A stretch of 39,520 nucleotides of DNA from Sarea resinae (GCA_026026165.1 JAPEUD010000118.1:1-39520); one strand, 5' to 3'; numbered from the stretch's first letter, positions 1 through 7,477 are shown. Numbers and translations: made by a program. The notes: generated by a model not told the origin, from the sequence alone.

Positions 1-49
1 TTTGGCTGGCATTGAGAGCATGCAATTCCTCGAAATGCAAAAAACAAAT

Positions 50-137
50 CTCTCCGACGGGGAATCGAACCCCGGTCTCCCGCGCTCGTACCTAAGAAGA
101 TGACAAGCGGAAATCATCACCACTAGACCATCGAAGA
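50..137 (-). tRNA. tRNA-Asp(GUC) with 16-nt intron (85..100), copy 1
   Basis: The reverse complement reads TCTTCGA TGGTCTAGTGGTGATGATT TCCGC TT GTC A [TCTTCTTAGGTACGAG] C GCGGG AGACC GGGG TTCGATT CCCCG TCGGAGA G. It shows an acceptor stem, A/B boxes, a GTC anticodon, a canonical intron after position 37 and a T-run terminator. Confidence 0.95.
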
Positions 138-719
138 TTGTTGATAGACGGGCTTCTTATTAATCCTATATCCTAGGTCCTCGCTTAGTAACTAATATGC
201 CTACTACTAAGTACGTGACGACGTCGTATGACGTAACGCGCCCTGGCCACAACAAGACTGGCAATTGGCTTCTTAGCATCGTGATGAAAATCTGAAATCC
301 ATATGTAATCGTTCTATGAGTTTAAAACGCGAAAAGAGCTTGATGGTGGTGTTGCGGGTCGAGGGGTCCTATGACACCGTAATGAGAGACTCTCGATAAT
401 TTAGGTGGGCGGCGACGACGCGAACATATAATTCGGATTAATAGTCCCAGGTCAGGAGTGCTCAGGAGGGGCTTACAACATAGATAGAATGACAATATGT
501 AGATATTTTGATACGTCAACAGATCTAGAGCCGCTTTGAACTCGAAGTGCCTATGGTTGGTCTCGTAACACGGTGCGTCTTTTGATACAGGGACGGAGGT
601 TAATTGATATCCACTATTGTTTGTAAAATGCCCGAACTTCTGCTTCACCAATCCAATATACTATCATTGGCGATTCTCCCTTGTACCTTGGGGCCTGCCG
701 TCTGGTCATAAGGAGTAGG

Positions 720-2066
720 CTACATGATAGTACAAGCTGCCACAGCAATTCCCACTGATGCGATTTGGAAAGCAGTGCCTACAACACCAGCTCCAACTCC
801 GATCCGGCTCAAACAAGTGTCCATTCGATGCTTATCGATATTCTGTCGCTTTTGACAAAGATCCAATTCTCTCTTGCAATCGTTGTACTTTTCCAAGAGC
901 CTTGCGGCCTCCTCGGGGTTCTGCGGCATTCCATCGGAAGCTGTTCTTCGAGAGGAAGCCGATCCGGATCCGATCTCGACCCCTTGGTCTCTCAGCCGAT
1001 CCTCCAGCCTACTTATCTCCAACGTCATCACTCTCCGCTGTTGTTCATCCCGTTCTCTGTTCCTCTCCAACCTCTCCAGTTCTTCCTTCAGTGCAGCCTC
1101 GCTCCTAGCATGCAATGCCTCCACATCTCCATGCATCATAGTCAAAGCTCTCTCACTGTTATACAACTGCAAACTTAAATCCTCCTTCGATGCGTCGAGC
1201 GCAGATGCAAGCTCTTTATTCTTCATCTTCGCCGCTCTTCTCGCCTCCCTCCTCGCTTCCGCGAGATTAGATTTGCAAAGCGCTTGAAGACTTAAAACCT
1301 CACCCTGCATCTCAATCCCTGCTTCCGTCTCATTCAAAGACTTATGCTCGTTAACCATCTGATGCTGCAGCGCAAGTGTCTTCTTCTGCCCGTGCTGGAT
1401 AATGTAGTCGCACGCAATTAGAGCAGACGCACGGTCGTTATAAAACTTGAAGGACTTGCTCCCAGCAGCGATCATATCCCCCCAAAGCTCCCGACTGTTT
1501 ATCAACTCTTCTTCCCTTCTCTTCGCAATTGCAAAGTCTTCCTTGTTCCACATCGTCGATCCAAGCAGAACAACAGAGTACGCATCTTCTCCGCAGATCT
1601 TCTTCACAATACGAAGTGCCTTTTTAGCAGAGCCTTGTGCGCGAGGGCTGTTTATGGCGTGCAGGTAGATGATGCCGCTCACTTGGACACCATAGGTATA
1701 TGCTTGGTTCAGGCAAGCTGCAATGTCCTCGAGCAAGAGAGCGTCTGAGGTAGTGCTTCCATCGAAACCGGGCGTGTCGATAAGATGAACCGTGTGACCG
1801 TTACGTTCAAACGTGAACGGCTCCACGAGGGTTGTACCTGTTACGTGGTCAGCCTTTGTCTGCATCTCGAACGAGGTTTGGAAAGCTTACATGCGTCTAA
1901 GTCATGGCCTATTTCTACGTTCTGGCCCGTACACTGGGAAATGAACGTGCTCTTTCCGGCCCCTGTAAGTCCGACAACAGCGATAACGATGTCGTTTGGC
2001 CCGAAGATTGTTAGAGAATCGTAACGTGTCAATCCGAGGAGCACCTTACTTGATAGGAGTAGACAT
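720..2066 (-). CDS. AIG1/GIMAP-like (MMR_HSR1-type) P-loop GTPase A with C-terminal coiled coil, hydrophobic tail and CaaX box; ~414 aa; possibly splice-defective
   Basis: Predicted exons 2066-2050, 2000-1891 and 1837-720. Motifs: IVIAVVGLTGAGKSTFI (G1), GHDLDACT (G2), LIDTPGFD (G3), SGIIYLH, STMW. The protein ends ...GIAVAACTIM. Intron 1890-1838 is canonical (GTAAGC..GCTGAC..CAG); intron 2049-2001 ends in GG rather than AG. Confidence 0.85.
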
Positions 2067-2676
2067 CTCTAGGAGACCTAAACAGTATCCGCTTAATGAC
2101 AGCTTGAGACCGTACAGTTTAAGATCACTTGAAGCTTCGCTTGATCTAAAATAATATTGCGATCTCTTACTCGGAATAGATGCTCGGCCTCACCTGGCAC
2201 AGCGGATTTATTTTTATCTATAGACGGGAGATTTTATGCCAGAGAAGATGGCCGTCCTGATCAAGCGGGTCAACTGTTGTCGAGTGGCCAATATGGAAAG
2301 CGGATATTGTGGTTGCGCACCTGCAGTCAGCACGCACGAGAGATGATCTTCTGCTGCGCCTCTTGAGCTTGAGAGGTTGGGCCGCGCGACAACTGACATT
2401 TGATCTGTCTGCCCCACTCATCACAGCCAAACCAGCCTATGTTAATTCTCATTGGTGTTTCGGCGTGCGCTAAATCCGATGAGTATTGTTGCCTGCACGG
2501 CTGGGGTATATTTGGCCCCATCCACGAAGGCGCAACGTGAAGTCTTATCGTCCTTTACCGTCCTTATAGGCAGCCACATCCCTAGTTGTACACAACAAAT
2601 TCTACCTAAAGTAAGCAATGCCCCTCGGCCCACTTTCACTCGCAATCTTCTCGCCGACAAGAGCACCCAAGTCAAA
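2067..2676. promoter_or_regulatory. Putative bidirectional promoter between the two GTPase genes
   Basis: About 610 bp lie between the divergent ATGs at 2066(-) and 2677(+), with only short non-protein-like ORFs. Confidence 0.55.
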
Positions 2677-4775
2677 ATGCGTTCTTTCTTTTCTGCAAAA
2701 TCCTCAGCGAAGAGACAACCGCAGTATGAAGTTTACGATGACGATAGTGATGACGGCCAATATGAGAGCACCGATGATTCAATCAGTTCCTACGAAGGGT
2801 CAAATTCCGGGTCTGATTCAAGGTTCTCGTCGAAAGATCCCCCCCGTCCGGAGTCGCGACAGTTGGGTCCAGCTGGGATGAACTTTAGCCGACAACAAAT
2901 GTTGGGGCCAGCTCCAGCTGAACGAAGAAGCGATGGAAGTGTGGGAGGGCAAGCACCACCGCAATTCACCAGAGGTCTTGCTGCACACGCTCTCCAGCAG
3001 CCGGTTCCGGAATGGGGCATGCGAAAGCCGGCTCAGAGAGCTCGGAATTCAGATTCTGCTTCTCCTGATCTCGACAACTCTCCGACACGTAGCCCAGCAT
3101 CTGCAAATAATCCATCCACAGTTGAACCTATTCTTCCAAATCCTCGAAGCGTGCCAGAGAGGAATTCTTTCATACCTCGAAAGCCTGTAAATAAGCCTGC
3201 GAAAAGGATACTCATTGCTGTGTTTGGCATGACGGGAACGGGAAAGACTACCTTTATCAAACAACTTGCTGGCGAGGCGGCAAGCCAACTTCGGACTGGA
3301 CATAACCTTGAATCTTGTACTTATTTCGACCTCCAGTCCCTGTATTCCGGCTAATATGCATTAGGCACTCAGGAAATCGAGACCGTTGATTTCAGGCTTG
3401 ACGGTTATGATGTTACACTTGTAGATACTCCCGGATTCGACGACTCGAAAAGGAGTGACTCTGAGGTTCTCACACTCGTAGCAGATTGGCTGGGGAGCTC
3501 CTACAAAGTACGTTCTCGAAACGATGAAGTGACTCTATCGGCGCTCCAGTTAAATTTTCATAGGACGAGACATTACTCTCCGGGATTATCTACCTCCACC
3601 GAATATCAGACGTACGAATGTCAGGATCCTCAATCAAAAACCTTCGAATGTTCCGCAAGCTTTGTGGGGCTGAAAACATGTCCAAAGTGTGTCTGTTAAC
3701 CACTATGTGGGATATGGTCGACCCTCAAGACGGATCAGCAAAAGAAAGAGAGCTACAAGGTCCAGGTTTCTGGGGCACCTTAATTGCTAGTGGAGCCTCC
3801 ATCAGACGACACGATAGGAAAATAGACTCTGCTCGAGATGTGGTACGCAGTATGCTGGTCAACGAGCCAACAACCATCAAGTTGCAAGACGAGATTGTTT
3901 CGGGCAAGACCTTGATCGAGACAGATGCTGGTGGTTTCATTAACGAGGAGATTCTGAAATTGCAAAAGCAGCATGAAGAAGACCTGAAAGTCGTGGAAGA
4001 GGAGCTGCGTTCAGCAATGGAGTCAGGTATGTGTCTTCAAACTCGTATCATTTCTATCACTGATCCATCAACAGGCAATCAAAAACTCCAGGCCCAACTC
4101 GAAGCTCAGTATAAGCAGACTCTTTCCCAAATAGAGCAACAAGCGGAGCAGCGACACAAGCTCGCACAGACCCAAATCAACAATCTCGAGCGCCGGTGGC
4201 AAGACGCAGATAATGAGAGGGAAACACAAGAACGCGAGCTTCGCGCTTCTGCTGCTAGAGAGCGTGAGCGCCGCATCATTGCCGAAAGAGAGCGCGAGCA
4301 GGCCGAACAAGCTTTCGCTGAGAGGGAGAGGGAAAGGGGGCGCGTTGAATGGGCTTCTAGTGCAAGAGAGCGCGAGTTTCGGATGGCCGCCGCGAGAGAG
4401 CGCGAGGAGCTCGAACAGGAAGCGAGGCAAAGAGAGCGCTTCGGACCTGTTAGAGAGAGAGCTGGCTACGAAGAACATTCACGTCGACGAGATGCGGAAG
4501 AAGACCATGATCGACCGAATATCGTGAAGACGAGACGGAATTCTGCACCGGTTCCCTACCCGGCACGCTCTTGGCGCTCTTGGTCTGAAACGAAGCGAAA
4601 GCGGGAGAAACATAATGGACGGCCGTATAAGACGTTTGAATGCTATTATCCTAACACATTCACTCGTTCAGGGTGCGCACGGCCGTTTGATGTTGTTAAC
4701 CCTACGCCGGGAAAAATTCAATGTTGCTATTGTAGGAAGAATTGGACGATTTGGGGAAGGGGGAGGCTTCGCTGA
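2677..4775 (+). CDS. AIG1/GIMAP-like P-loop GTPase B with disordered N-terminus, E/R-rich helix and C-terminal Cys cluster; ~648 aa
   Basis: Exons 2677-3316, 3365-3507, 3564-4026 and 4075-4775 total 1947 nt and are in frame. Motifs: ILIAVFGMTGTGKTTFI, GHNLESCT, LVDTPGFDD, LSGIIYLHRISDVRMSGS, TTMWD. All introns are GT..AG. Confidence 0.88.
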
Positions 4776-5264
4776 CGATCAGAATCCGATCGACTGATCT
4801 TTGAAGTGGCGGGAACAAGCAGTGGCCAATCTTCATTGTGGTCTACTCGTGCAACTGAGATCAATCGTTGATGTGAATAGAAATCTATTGTGATGTAAAC
4901 CGGCGCTGGTTCATGTACACCTCGAGAAGTGCTCTTCCAGTACAACGGTGAAAGAGTAAGACCAACTTATTCCTTGGATACTAAGGTGATGGGGCAGAGT
5001 TTGACCTAGGCGATCGGGGGTGTCGGAAAGTGAGTGGGATAAGCGATCATCGCAAGAATAATGCGGGATTCCTACTTTTCGTCTGAAAATGCTATCTGTA
5101 CAGCTATCATCCCTGGAGTTCCAAGGAATTAGTCACATGAGAATAAATCATCGTTGATCTAGGAATCGGCTCGACCTCTTTCTCGTTCACACGAAAAGGA
5201 GGTAGCTTGGAAAAAACGTTGGGTGGTTCATACCATGGCTAGTGACGCTTTTACTTCAAGCAAG

Positions 5265-5352
5265 TCTTCGATGGTCTAGTGGTGATGATTTCCGCTTGTC
5301 ATCTTCCTAGGTACGAGCGCGGGAGACCGGGGTTCGATTCCCCGTCGGAGAG
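5265..5352 (+). tRNA. tRNA-Asp(GUC) with 16-nt intron (5302..5317), copy 2
   Basis: Same sequence as copy 1 except one intron base (TCTTCCTAGG vs TCTTCTTAGG); followed by an ATTTGTTTTTTT Pol III terminator. Confidence 0.95.
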
Positions 5353-6072
5353 ATTTGTTTTTTTGCATTTTGCCCATCCTGCGACCAACATCGTTTCCCA
5401 TCCTTAGATCGATAGGATTTAATCGCAGTACTGATGCATCAAACGCTCGTAGATCTCAAATGCATCTGCCATTTAGCAAGTGCCTGAAGATCCCCTGAGA
5501 TCGCATGTTACGGCTGAAGTGGAAGAACGACGGCCCCGTCAACAAATCTTGTGCAAAATTTCTCTTTCTTCCAGAGCTTTGTGTAGAAATGGGTCGCTTG
5601 AACCAGATTCTGCCGGAGACGGAGGTCGATAAATTGAGTCTTCTGGTTCAGAGGCCGCTCGGCTCAAAGAATTTGGGAATTCTGGAACTTCTATATCATC
5701 GATTCGAACATAAGCGGACTATCTCAGAAGAATTGTCAGGAATCCTTCGATGTTGTTACTTTGTGCCAACTCTCTCAAGCACAATCTATCTTCTGGCCAA
5801 TCGCAAAATGTTCAGTCAAACATTGATTATCTAGATCGTGTAATTCAACAAAATGATGGTGTGCTGATAGTGAATCATGAGTGCTCAATATTCACCCATC
5901 TGTAGTATGCAGTACCAATCTGGAATTTAGGTAATACAGAACTTTGTACCTTTTATTTACCTCAAGCTATGACGAAGCCAGCCAGGGCCAACTATCAACA
6001 TCAACACTTCAGCTGCACAACATCCAAACCCACAACACCACCGTCACAAAGACCTCCACCGATAACATCAAT

Positions 6073-7477
6073 ATGTTCAGCGTCCGTCGTCTAGCTCCCC
6101 GAGCCGCCGCCCCGCGCGTGCTCCCCATCCCCGCTCTCTCTACTAGTCCACGTTCCTTCCACGCCTCGGCGCCCGCGTTCGTCCAAAAGGGCGATAAGCT
6201 CCCCAACCTCGGCGCGGTCCTGATGGAGGGCTCGCCGGGTAACAAGGTGGATCTCGCGCAGGAGCTCAAGGCTGGAAAGGGGGTCGTAATAGGCGTGCCT
6301 GCAGCCTTCAGTACGTAATGGGTTTCCTAATTTGCGGGTGTTTTGGCTTTGATCAGATTCTATTTCTTCCGTGGATTTCGGATCGTTGTACTAGTGGTTC
6401 ATGCTTGTGTATCTTTTTGTTCTCGGGAAGTGAATTGGTTACCAGCTTTTTGGCCAACTGCGGAAGTTGCCTGCTCTGTCTGTCTGCGTAGTTCACTGGT
6501 TTTTTGTCCCTGAACTTTCTCAAATGGACTGTTTGATTGTTCTACGCCCAACAAAACATAGTTTCTGGCAAATCGTCGGTCTCGACTGATGACGACGGGA
6601 ACGAACAACAGGTCCCTCATGCTCCAACTCGCACATTCCCGGTTACATCCAACACCCGGCCCTCAAAGACGCCGGCAAAGTCTTCGTCGTCGCTGTCAAC
6701 GACCCTTTCGTGTAAGTTCCATCTCTTCTCTCTTTCTCCTATTCCTTTTCCTCTTTGAAAGCAAGAGCTCCTTCGCTGTCTCTAAAATTGAGAAGCCTTC
6801 GCCCCTGAGCCCGAGAACTACGGTTACATATGCAAGACTCCGTCGTCGTCGACACTTGTTCTCATGAATATCTAATACCATACCGGTAGCCACTAACTAA
6901 GCTGACTACGATGGACCGCTCACAGGACTAAAGCATGGGGACTAAGTCTCGATCCCAAAGGAGAGAGCGGCGTAAGTCTCTTAAGCCGTTCCACTCCACT
7001 CCACCACTTTCCTCTCCACTCCACTCCGCTCCACTCGGCCTCACTTCCCCTTTCTCCCAATCATTTCCCACTGACAAAGAACCAAACAACTCAGATCCGA
7101 TTCCTCGCGGACCCCTCCACGGCCCTGACAAGTGCGCTCGACCTCTCCTTCGACGGGACGGCCATCTTCGGCGGTCCGCGCTCGAAACGCTACGCGCTGA
7201 TCGTCGAGGACGGCGTGGTGAAAGACGCGTTCGTCGAGGGCGACAACACCGGCTTGGATGGTAAGCTTTTTCTTTGCTCTTTTCCCCTCCGTCTTCATCT
7301 TGCTTGACCTATCGATTGAGCTCATCCTTTCCCTTCACCTCCCCACCCGCCCACATCATTGACCCCCTCGCACCCGAAAGATCAACTCAGAGAAAGAAAA
7401 GCAAAACTTACTGACGCATGCTCCTCTCCCTTTTTTTCTACCATATAGTCTCAAAGGCGGAAAACGTACTCGGCTAG
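6073..7477 (+). CDS. Prx5/Ahp1-type peroxiredoxin (redoxin family), probably mitochondrial
   Basis: Exons 6073-6310, 6612-6711, 6926-6971, 7095-7260 and 7449-7477 join to give GVPAAFSPSCSNSHIPGY (peroxidatic Cys), VNDPFV..AW, IRFLADP and RSKRYALIVEDG. The N-terminus is Arg/Ala-rich and presequence-like. Confidence 0.92.

Follow-up and report, generated by a model that had tools for sequence, protein, structure and literature searches.

A head-to-head pair of GIMAP/Toc-like GTPase genes between inverted tRNA-Asp genes of Sarea resinae

At the left end of a 39,520-nucleotide contig of Sarea resinae (GCA_026026165.1 JAPEUD010000118.1:1-39520; this whole stretch is referred to below as the window), two divergently transcribed genes for P-loop GTPases, designated A and B, are enclosed by two inverted, near-identical tRNA-Asp genes. 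The arrangement raises the question of whether the pair is a functional unit, how it came to this place and whether the tRNA genes have any part in it. An earlier interpretation, made without database searches (the sequence-only reading), had proposed an accessory two-component defence or non-self recognition cassette whose presence or orientation may vary between strains. The reading favoured here, to which we assign a probability of roughly 0.55, is that A and B form a conserved, probably horizontally acquired two-gene module of GIMAP/Toc-like ('paraseptin') GTPases, which came to lie between the tRNA-Asp genes by chance or through local duplication.

The two genes and their predicted fold

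Gene A (720..2044, minus strand, 423 codons) is composed of a first exon encoding the P-loop (2044-1891), a 53-nt GT..AG intron (1890-1838) and a second exon (1837-720), and has no internal stop. Gene B (2677..4775, plus strand, 648 codons) is read from four exons (2677-3316, 3365-3507, 3564-4026 and 4075-4775). The starts of the two genes are separated by a common upstream region of 632 bp (2045..2676); the divergent arrangement described in the sequence-only reading is thus retained, with its spacing of ~610 bp corrected. In each gene an intron sits within the same Cys codon right after the P-loop exon, which fits a common origin, and the orthologues P0002 (A) and P0045 (B) share 33% amino acid sequence identity over 266 residues (E 6e-37). 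Both genes are intact, and they are head-to-head paralogues, as highly divergent from one another as had been supposed.

The product of A comprises a G domain, a three-helix stalk, a hydrophobic tail rich in Gly and Ala, and a terminal CTIM. Structure models were made on the Seiridium orthologues P0002 and P0045, which are 90% and 73% identical to A and B of Sarea resinae, respectively. The AlphaFold2 (AF2) model of P0002, with a predicted local distance difference test score (pLDDT) of 83.6 and a predicted template modelling score (pTM) of 0.74, places the G domain at residues 19-215, three long helices at 223-335 and a further helix at 357-392, followed by a low-confidence tail. The most hydrophobic 19-residue window of A, 402-420 (mean hydropathy 1.78), is Gly/Ala-rich. 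A terminal C-x-[IV]-M, which we take to have the form of a CaaX prenylation box, is found in 11 of the 13 aligned A homologues, the remaining two ending before the tail; the box reads CTIM in Sarea resinae and CTIM, CTVM, CSIM, CNVM or CVTM in the homologues. With a Cys fourth from the C-terminus, two mostly aliphatic residues and then M, A is predicted to be prenylated, and is the putative carrier of the membrane-directing end, i.e. of the Gly/Ala-rich hydrophobic stretch and the CaaX box.

The product of B contains a disordered N-terminus of ~175 residues, a G domain with TMWD as its G4 motif, a helix of ~130 residues and a C-terminal 4-Cys knuckle. In the AF2 model of P0045 (pLDDT 65.4 overall, in the 80s and 90s for the G domain and the helix), residues 1-173 are disordered, the G domain occupies 181-376 and a single helix 385-513, and a disordered linker leads to a small beta unit at 590-631. 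In the public model of B, P0043, a predicted intron removes the last 40-odd residues (4620-4775), including the 4-Cys end; the read-through frame yields this end, which is retained by the orthologues P0045, P0048 and P0052.

The label AIG1/GIMAP-like, given to both proteins in the sequence-only reading, is right for their predicted fold and for the wider clade to which they belong, strict membership of Pfam AIG1 having failed. The Pfam gathering cut-offs are 21.9 bits for MMR_HSR1 (PF01926) and 27 bits for AIG1 (PF04548). The former was passed by P0002 (42.0 bits), P0043 (40.8) and P0045 (36.1), in line with the proposed check against this family, single Sarea resinae exons scoring lower. The latter was reached by none of the A or B proteins tested (18.1-24.5 vs 27 bits), the scores being 20.9-24.5 for A-type and 18.1-23.9 for B-type proteins, with no match for P0066 at E <= 0.01; it is passed by some relatives of 30-35% identity, e.g. 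P0291 (108 bits) and P0305 (62). When the model of the A orthologue was compared with the PDB by Foldseek, ranks 1-15 were all occupied by GIMAP7/2/1/5 or Toc34/33 (E 1e-10 to 1e-7), and for the B orthologue model the same was true of GIMAP or Toc in 16 of the 16 matches listed down to rank 21. A profile search of PDB sequences led to GIMAP4/7, septins, Toc33/34 and Toc120/90, with the longest stretches for GIMAP7 and Toc33, and to EngA/Der over the G1-G3 part only. The first alignment used for this search had given coiled-coil matches only, since most of its rows were without the P-loop exon, and it was replaced by alignments with the P-loop.

Motif alignments of 52 A-family and 32 B-family sequences show full or almost full conservation of the P-loop, of DTPGF and of a single arginine behind strand 4 (orthologue numbering: R117 in A, R282 in B). 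TTMWD of the B family is aligned with the G4 motif NKWD of EngA. R117 and R282 may correspond to the arginines of GIMAP7 or Toc33, and may be the same residue as the arginine finger of TOC34/159 and AIG1/GIMAP. The occurrence of arginine fingers in these two groups is mentioned in a passage of a paper on septin origins (PMC11238149). For NACHT, NB-ARC or nSTAND, A and B gave sub-threshold matches at the level of the P-loop only, and they contain no repeats, which places them outside the fungal NOD-like receptors (NLRs) of the signal transduction ATPases with numerous domains (STAND) class.

Recurrence and origin of the pair

A homologue search with A returned 42 matches among 5.8 billion proteins, in a scattered distribution. 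For nine of the 19 A-type matches (P0002-P0020, 43-90% identity) there is a B-type match whose longest contig has an identical length, namely in Seiridium cardinale, S. cupressi, Colletotrichum gloeosporioides, Phialocephala subalpina, Acephala macrosclerotiorum and four Logan contigs, and in two genomes A and B bear consecutive locus tags (GCG54_00006934/35 and PAC_05885/86). Judged from these sequences, A and B travel together in other fungi. The sequence-only reading had counted an absence of linked pairs elsewhere among the grounds for its rejection; such pairs are present in these nine instances, in the two genomes with adjacent tags and, at a greater distance, as head-to-head pairs in metagenomes.

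The latter were obtained by a scan of metagenome contigs, which gave 70 loci with relatives at 28-44% identity, pairs being called by tblastn with both proteins. Eleven of the 70 loci hold 12 tight head-to-head family pairs with gaps of 551-1290 bp; four looser head-to-head pairs (2.2-2.6 kb apart), two tail-to-tail pairs and 12 same-strand neighbours, mostly in arrays, were found as well. The hydrophobic stretch and a CVVM, CSVM or CTVM end occur in one member of six of the 12 tight pairs (L001, L003, L007, L009 and both L070 pairs), and a partner with a Cys-rich segment after the helix is present in L001, L003, L005, L007 and one L070 pair; in four tight pairs the ends lie off the contig or are hidden by introns. 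The conserved feature is therefore a design, one CaaX-type and one Cys-rich member, and not demonstrably the same two orthologues. In L030 (3513-5771), a plus-strand member fused to WD40 repeats stands head-to-head with another family member.

The same-strand arrays consist of two to three B-leaning members 0.5-7.6 kb apart (L029/L034/L037 on one contig, L031/L038/L060 on one contig, L051 and L065) and represent a locally expanded family.

The identity of A is 90% to its counterpart in Seiridium cardinale (Xylariales), 83% to that of Colletotrichum gloeosporioides and 46% to those of Phialocephala and Acephala. The corresponding values for B are 73% (Seiridium), 61% (Colletotrichum) and 46-57% (Phialocephala and Acephala), with 63% for Lachnellula. 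COG6, encoded on the same contig, has its best non-self match at 66% (Pycnora), the other 118 matches listed being at 57-65%, and neither Seiridium nor Colletotrichum is found among the named COG6 matches listed. Hence Sarea resinae appears to be without a close sequenced relative, yet its A is nearly identical to a protein of a fungus from another class, and this contrast (90% vs at most 66%) suggests horizontal acquisition. The pair was most likely acquired as a unit. In agreement with the sequence-only reading, it looks accessory and not housekeeping, given the few scattered orthologues and an identity to a Sordariomycete far above that of COG6.

At the nucleotide level, contigs of a moss metagenome (X2) cover 1027-4783 and those of a soil metagenome (X4) cover 711-4421, with identities of about 95-97% in A, about 91-95% in B and about 88-90% around the 5' end of B. 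The likeness stops <=10 bp from both stop codons, and one X2 contig continues for 152 nt beyond 4783, after the stop of B, with sequence unlike the window. The common upstream region is partly conserved in the related contigs (1900-2232, 2478-2905). X2 and X4 have no contigs over 4915-6552, a lack of cover that is not evidence of absent flanks. RNA contigs of a wood-decay metatranscriptome (X5) match the 3' part of A at 99% (671-826, 869-1185) and the 3' end of B at 93%. In a careful tree of A, 10 sequences with short tips make up a crown clade (100/100) that is set on a stem of 0.57.

These data also bear on an explanation which we consider improbable, namely that A and B are a vertically inherited, lineage-restricted pair of trafficking or organelle GTPases under strong purifying selection, with no role in conflict and with the tRNAs as chance neighbours. 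Both open reading frames (ORFs) are intact and A is highly conserved, the base composition is not foreign, Toc33/34, among the closest folds, have housekeeping roles, and the monophyly of the Sordariomycete sequences is not rejected by the approximately unbiased (AU) test. However, vertical inheritance is difficult to reconcile with an A that is 90% identical to the protein of another class and 46% identical to the Leotiomycete copies when COG6 attains 66% at most, or with just 42 scattered matches for A in so large a protein collection. Nor would it account for the divergence of related contigs directly after the stop codon of B, or for relatives that reside in NLR-like and HET-containing architectures (see below).

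Several points nevertheless weigh against a conserved, horizontally acquired module. Linkage in the named genomes was read from locus tags and contig sizes, in which orientation is not visible. In a quick pair tree (93 rows, support by the Shimodaira-Hasegawa-like approximate likelihood ratio test, SH-aLRT, only), eight of the ten plus-strand pair genes included join the A clade at only 86% support, and five minus-strand partners form a clade of their own (99), apart from the B clade. From such sequences recurrent pairing within the family can be regarded as established, an ancient A/B pair cannot. The horizontal case rests on an identity contrast with a single housekeeping gene, COG6. GC and GC content at third codon positions (GC3) of A and B (0.55 and 0.475) are ordinary for the window, and neither GC3 nor indices of repeat-induced point mutation (RIP) set the cassette apart. 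A Seiridium and Colletotrichum clade excluding Sarea resinae is not rejected by the AU test (p 0.177), and the horizontal case therefore stands on identity levels, not on topology. The divergence of B lies mainly in its disordered and helical parts, the G domain being 80-90% and the Cys end 82-100% identical, and its lower overall identity need not mean diversifying selection. To these points should be added the sub-threshold AIG1 scores given above, the fact that binding between A and B (see below) is put forward as a proposal, and the state of A itself.

In Sarea resinae, A begins with GTG at 2044 (2042-2044), where the Seiridium orthologue has an ATG/Met start, the two proteins being collinear from residue 6, and no in-frame ATG was found ahead of the P-loop of A. 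An upstream ATG at ~2066 was rejected as the start: it is out of frame and followed by a stop after 6 codons, and splicing from it would, at the sole downstream AG acceptor, remove the first strand and break the frame. A non-AUG start or a recent loss of the start may be involved. Among the 42 matches for A there is no NCBI-named protein of the Sarea resinae contig, a bare ORF only. Moreover, the G4 motif of A reads TMWN, with Asn for Asp; the Asp is kept in nine of 13 aligned A homologues, P0002, P0005 and P0003 having Asn and P0015 Gly. In textbook GTPases an exchange of the G4 Asp for Asn weakens or alters guanine binding. With its GTG start and G4 Asn, A may be attenuated or decaying in Sarea resinae, and may represent the 'degenerate' half of the pair.

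Damage of this kind to A would be expected if a selfish element were being disarmed. It is hardly probable, in our opinion, that the pair is a two-gene addiction or drive element, with A as a membrane-active killer and B as its antidote or regulator, or the reverse, which spreads because loss of a single gene is harmful. Such an element would explain why tight head-to-head linkage is maintained across transfers, why likeness to related contigs is limited to both genes and parts of their common upstream region (711-4783), and why the tail of A is Gly/Ala-rich and glycine-zipper-like. However, no toxin or antidote domain was recognised with Pfam, terminal repeats or a mobility gene were not seen, and a design in which both components are complete GTPases of the same family is not known for toxin-antidote systems.

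The tRNA genes and the surroundings of the pair

The tRNA-Asp(GUC) genes at 50..137 (minus strand) and 5265..5352 (plus strand) are both matched by Rfam at 46.3 bits, and intron-permitting ARAGORN assigns tRNA-Asp(gtc) to each, the intron being 16 nt long and in the canonical 37/38 position. A Gly-tcc identity of both, returned by default ARAGORN without introns, was overridden by this intron-aware call. They lie in the arms of an inverted repeat (39-137 / 5265-5363) of 99 nt and 99% identity, which extends 11 nt beyond the tRNA 3' end and whose sole mismatch is within the tRNA intron. The inverted, near-identical tRNA-Asp genes of the sequence-only reading were thus confirmed, while the significance attached to the bracket is unproven. 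None of the 70 related metagenome loci has a credible tRNA, the two ARAGORN calls made there requiring 'introns' of 860 and 1271 nt, and the bracket is accordingly particular to the Sarea resinae contig. Furthermore, no integrase or transposase was found within 138-5264, and neither terminal repeats nor a mobility gene were seen at the cassette. With no integrase, with tRNAs that are whole and inverted, and with no tRNA recurring beside the cargo, the locus does not qualify as a mobile or integrative island targeted to a tRNA. We think it best to regard the two tRNA genes as neighbours of the pair by chance or by local duplication, and a barrier or recombination role for them would be speculation.

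Since the record is labelled a metagenome-assembled genome, one may ask whether the left 5 kb derive from another fungus of the sample and were joined through the conserved tRNA-Asp sequence. The would-be junction lies at a repeated, conserved tRNA, and the contig ends 49 bp past the left tRNA. However, the depth in X1, the probable source run, is much the same within the cassette (356-379), to the right of it (346.6, a 9.9-kb contig) and to the left (364.1, a 2.1-kb contig), which argues against a chimeric contig, and the depth of the tRNA unitig 54-137 is 700.9 vs about 360 for its neighbours, as fits two copies in one genome. A chimera is therefore unlikely, and we regard an assembly artefact as a very improbable source of the arrangement. 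No alternative junction (empty site, inversion) was seen in X1, the only run with flanks, which is no test of strain variation.

Two further observations were made in X1. A 2145-nt contig ends at position 68, so that ~2.1 kb exists to the left of position 1, and there are loose ends at 5263, 5315 and 5360, which suggest more tRNA copies in other contexts.

Between the tRNA genes, A and B are the sole convincing genes, as had been noticed from the start: the four other ORFs tested (322-651, 4727-4945, 2327-2521 and 2157-2366) have no Pfam match at E <= 0.01. The spacers at 138..719 and 4776..5264 are without a credible gene, and within the second of them the likeness to related metagenome contigs stops at 4783. 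The first contains, at about 297-447, what looks like the relic of a repeated element with RIP-like mutation; this segment matches many moss and soil metagenome contigs in differing flanking contexts, at a depth above that of the genes, and most of the differences are of the C>T or G>A kind.

Housekeeping genes resume to the right of the right-hand tRNA, as the sequence-only reading had stated. The first of them is a peroxiredoxin-like gene (5944..7307, plus strand) with a Redoxin domain in the exon 6906-7307, and it is followed by NIF3, Abhydrolase_2 (carboxylesterase), PhzF, COG6 and further housekeeping-like ORFs. At 6711-6926, inside the peroxiredoxin gene, a wood-decay metatranscriptome RNA contig omits 214 nt with GT..AG ends, which fits a spliced intron of a related organism.

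Relatives, candidate mode of action and significance

At E <= 1e-3 an exhaustive search with P0002 yielded 5832 representative clusters, of which 671 remain at E <= 1e-30, the matches typically spanning residues 15-335, i.e. the G domain and the stalk. In a Pfam scan of 21 of the 150 listed relatives, picked for length, eight carry other domains beside the G module: PNP_UDP_1 together with ankyrin (P0325, P0332), PNP_UDP_1 (P0299), ankyrin (P0345, P0362), HET (P0350), protein kinase (P0371) and WD40 (P0416). Two to four G stretches in one protein were found in 13 scanned relatives, some of which may be merged gene models. PNP_UDP, kinase, HET, ankyrin (ANK) and WD40 are partner domains of fungal NLRs, and the G-plus-stalk module is the NTPase at the centre of NLR-like proteins of fungi (PNP_UDP-G-ANK, G-WD40, G-HET, kinase-G). 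The use of the family in such NLR-like and HET-containing proteins suggests a context of non-self recognition, defence or cell death.

Some of this ground has been touched upon before. One paper (PMC7053062) describes GIMAPs as forming gene clusters of patchy distribution; it calls them lacking in yeast and other representative fungi, and it also mentions a fungal fusion with a kinase. A passage of a 2025 survey of Sordariales NLRs tells that an orthogroup with exactly the same Pfam signature was excluded, as being without systematic repeats (PMC12258605). PMC8857920, considered as a fungal report, was discarded because its 'fungi' match is the coral genus Fungia. Our literature searches found no paper describing the A/B pair or a GTPase-centred class of fungal NLRs.

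Under the favoured interpretation, B would be a soluble, faster-changing sensor or regulator and A its membrane-anchored partner. Paraseptin GTPases generally switch as G-domain dimers, e.g. GIMAP7 with GIMAP2 and Toc159 with Toc34. A and B would likewise pair across their G domains, with R117 and R282 acting in trans, and the pairing would switch the assembly of A at the membrane, leading to a defence-like or cell-death-like output. A complex prediction for the two orthologues, with their G-plus-stalk parts and with the alignments unused, had a score of 0.01 and a mark of 0.34, which speaks neither for nor against such pairing. An immune-like sensor/executor role of the pair, drawn by analogy, is plausible but unproven; defence, allorecognition, toxicity and balancing selection may be inferred at most.

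Close analogues are the vertebrate GIMAP/IAN proteins (AIG1 family), of which GIMAP2, GIMAP7, GIMAP1 and GIMAP5 are the best structural matches for A and B, and with which the two share the P-loop, DxxG, the conserved arginine that follows strand 4 and, behind the G domain, a helical extension. Some GIMAPs have a C-terminal membrane anchor, and one such protein is activated by a soluble member when the two dimerise through their G domains. On the other hand, A and B fall below the Pfam AIG1 threshold, have TMW(D/N) as G4 and are fungal proteins; A differs by its CaaX box and by a stalk of much greater length, B by a 4-Cys knuckle and a long disordered N-terminus. Chloroplast Toc33/34 are equally close by fold, and the layout of Toc33/34 and Toc159, a small tail-anchored GTPase and a larger paralogue with an acidic disordered region before the G domain, which pair through their G domains with an arginine finger, runs parallel to that of A and B. 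However, no plastid exists in fungi, the C-terminal part of B consists of a helix and a Cys knuckle instead of a membrane barrel, A has a CaaX box, and the distribution of A and B is patchy rather than universal.

Two further comparisons concern immunity more directly. In the relatives described above, the G-plus-stalk module takes the place of NACHT/NB-ARC in fungal STAND-type NLRs, between PNP_UDP, kinase or HET and ANK or WD40; the family is likewise large, with tandem arrays at related loci, and in the NWD2/HET-S pair, too, a sensor-like gene adjoins a membrane-directed one. Unlike such receptors, A and B have no NACHT/NB-ARC above threshold and no repeats, and no amyloid motif was seen. 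GBP1/2/5, which act in cell-autonomous immunity, combine a GTPase, a long helical stalk and a C-terminal CaaX that directs them to membranes, an organisation resembling that of A, and they give weak sequence and fold matches; the GBP G domain, however, is dynamin-like, and GIMAP/Toc rank clearly higher for A and B.

A more far-reaching possibility, which we put forward tentatively and hold to be distinctly less probable than the favoured interpretation, is that the pair is a free-standing, horizontally spreading immune or addiction module of Pezizomycotina, of the sensor/executor kind. The Cys-knuckle protein B would control the prenylated, glycine-zipper-tailed A at the membrane, and G-plus-stalk would be the oligomerising NTPase of an unclassified, GTPase-centred class of NLR-like fungal proteins.

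A link to immunity is known for the GIMAP/AIG1 GTPases of animals and plants, whose mechanism is poorly understood. A compact two-gene version in fungi, such as the GIMAP/Toc-like module described here, would be a tractable system for the study of signalling by paraseptin GTPases. The appeal of the pair lies in the apparent split of labour between a membrane-anchored and a soluble Cys-knuckle member, in its recurrence, and in its relatives among NLR-like and HET proteins. Should the proposed role hold, the pair would extend the range of genes for defence and non-self recognition in fungi beyond the NACHT and NB-ARC receptors; if its horizontal spread is true, it would also provide a small, well-defined case of gene transfer between classes of fungi.

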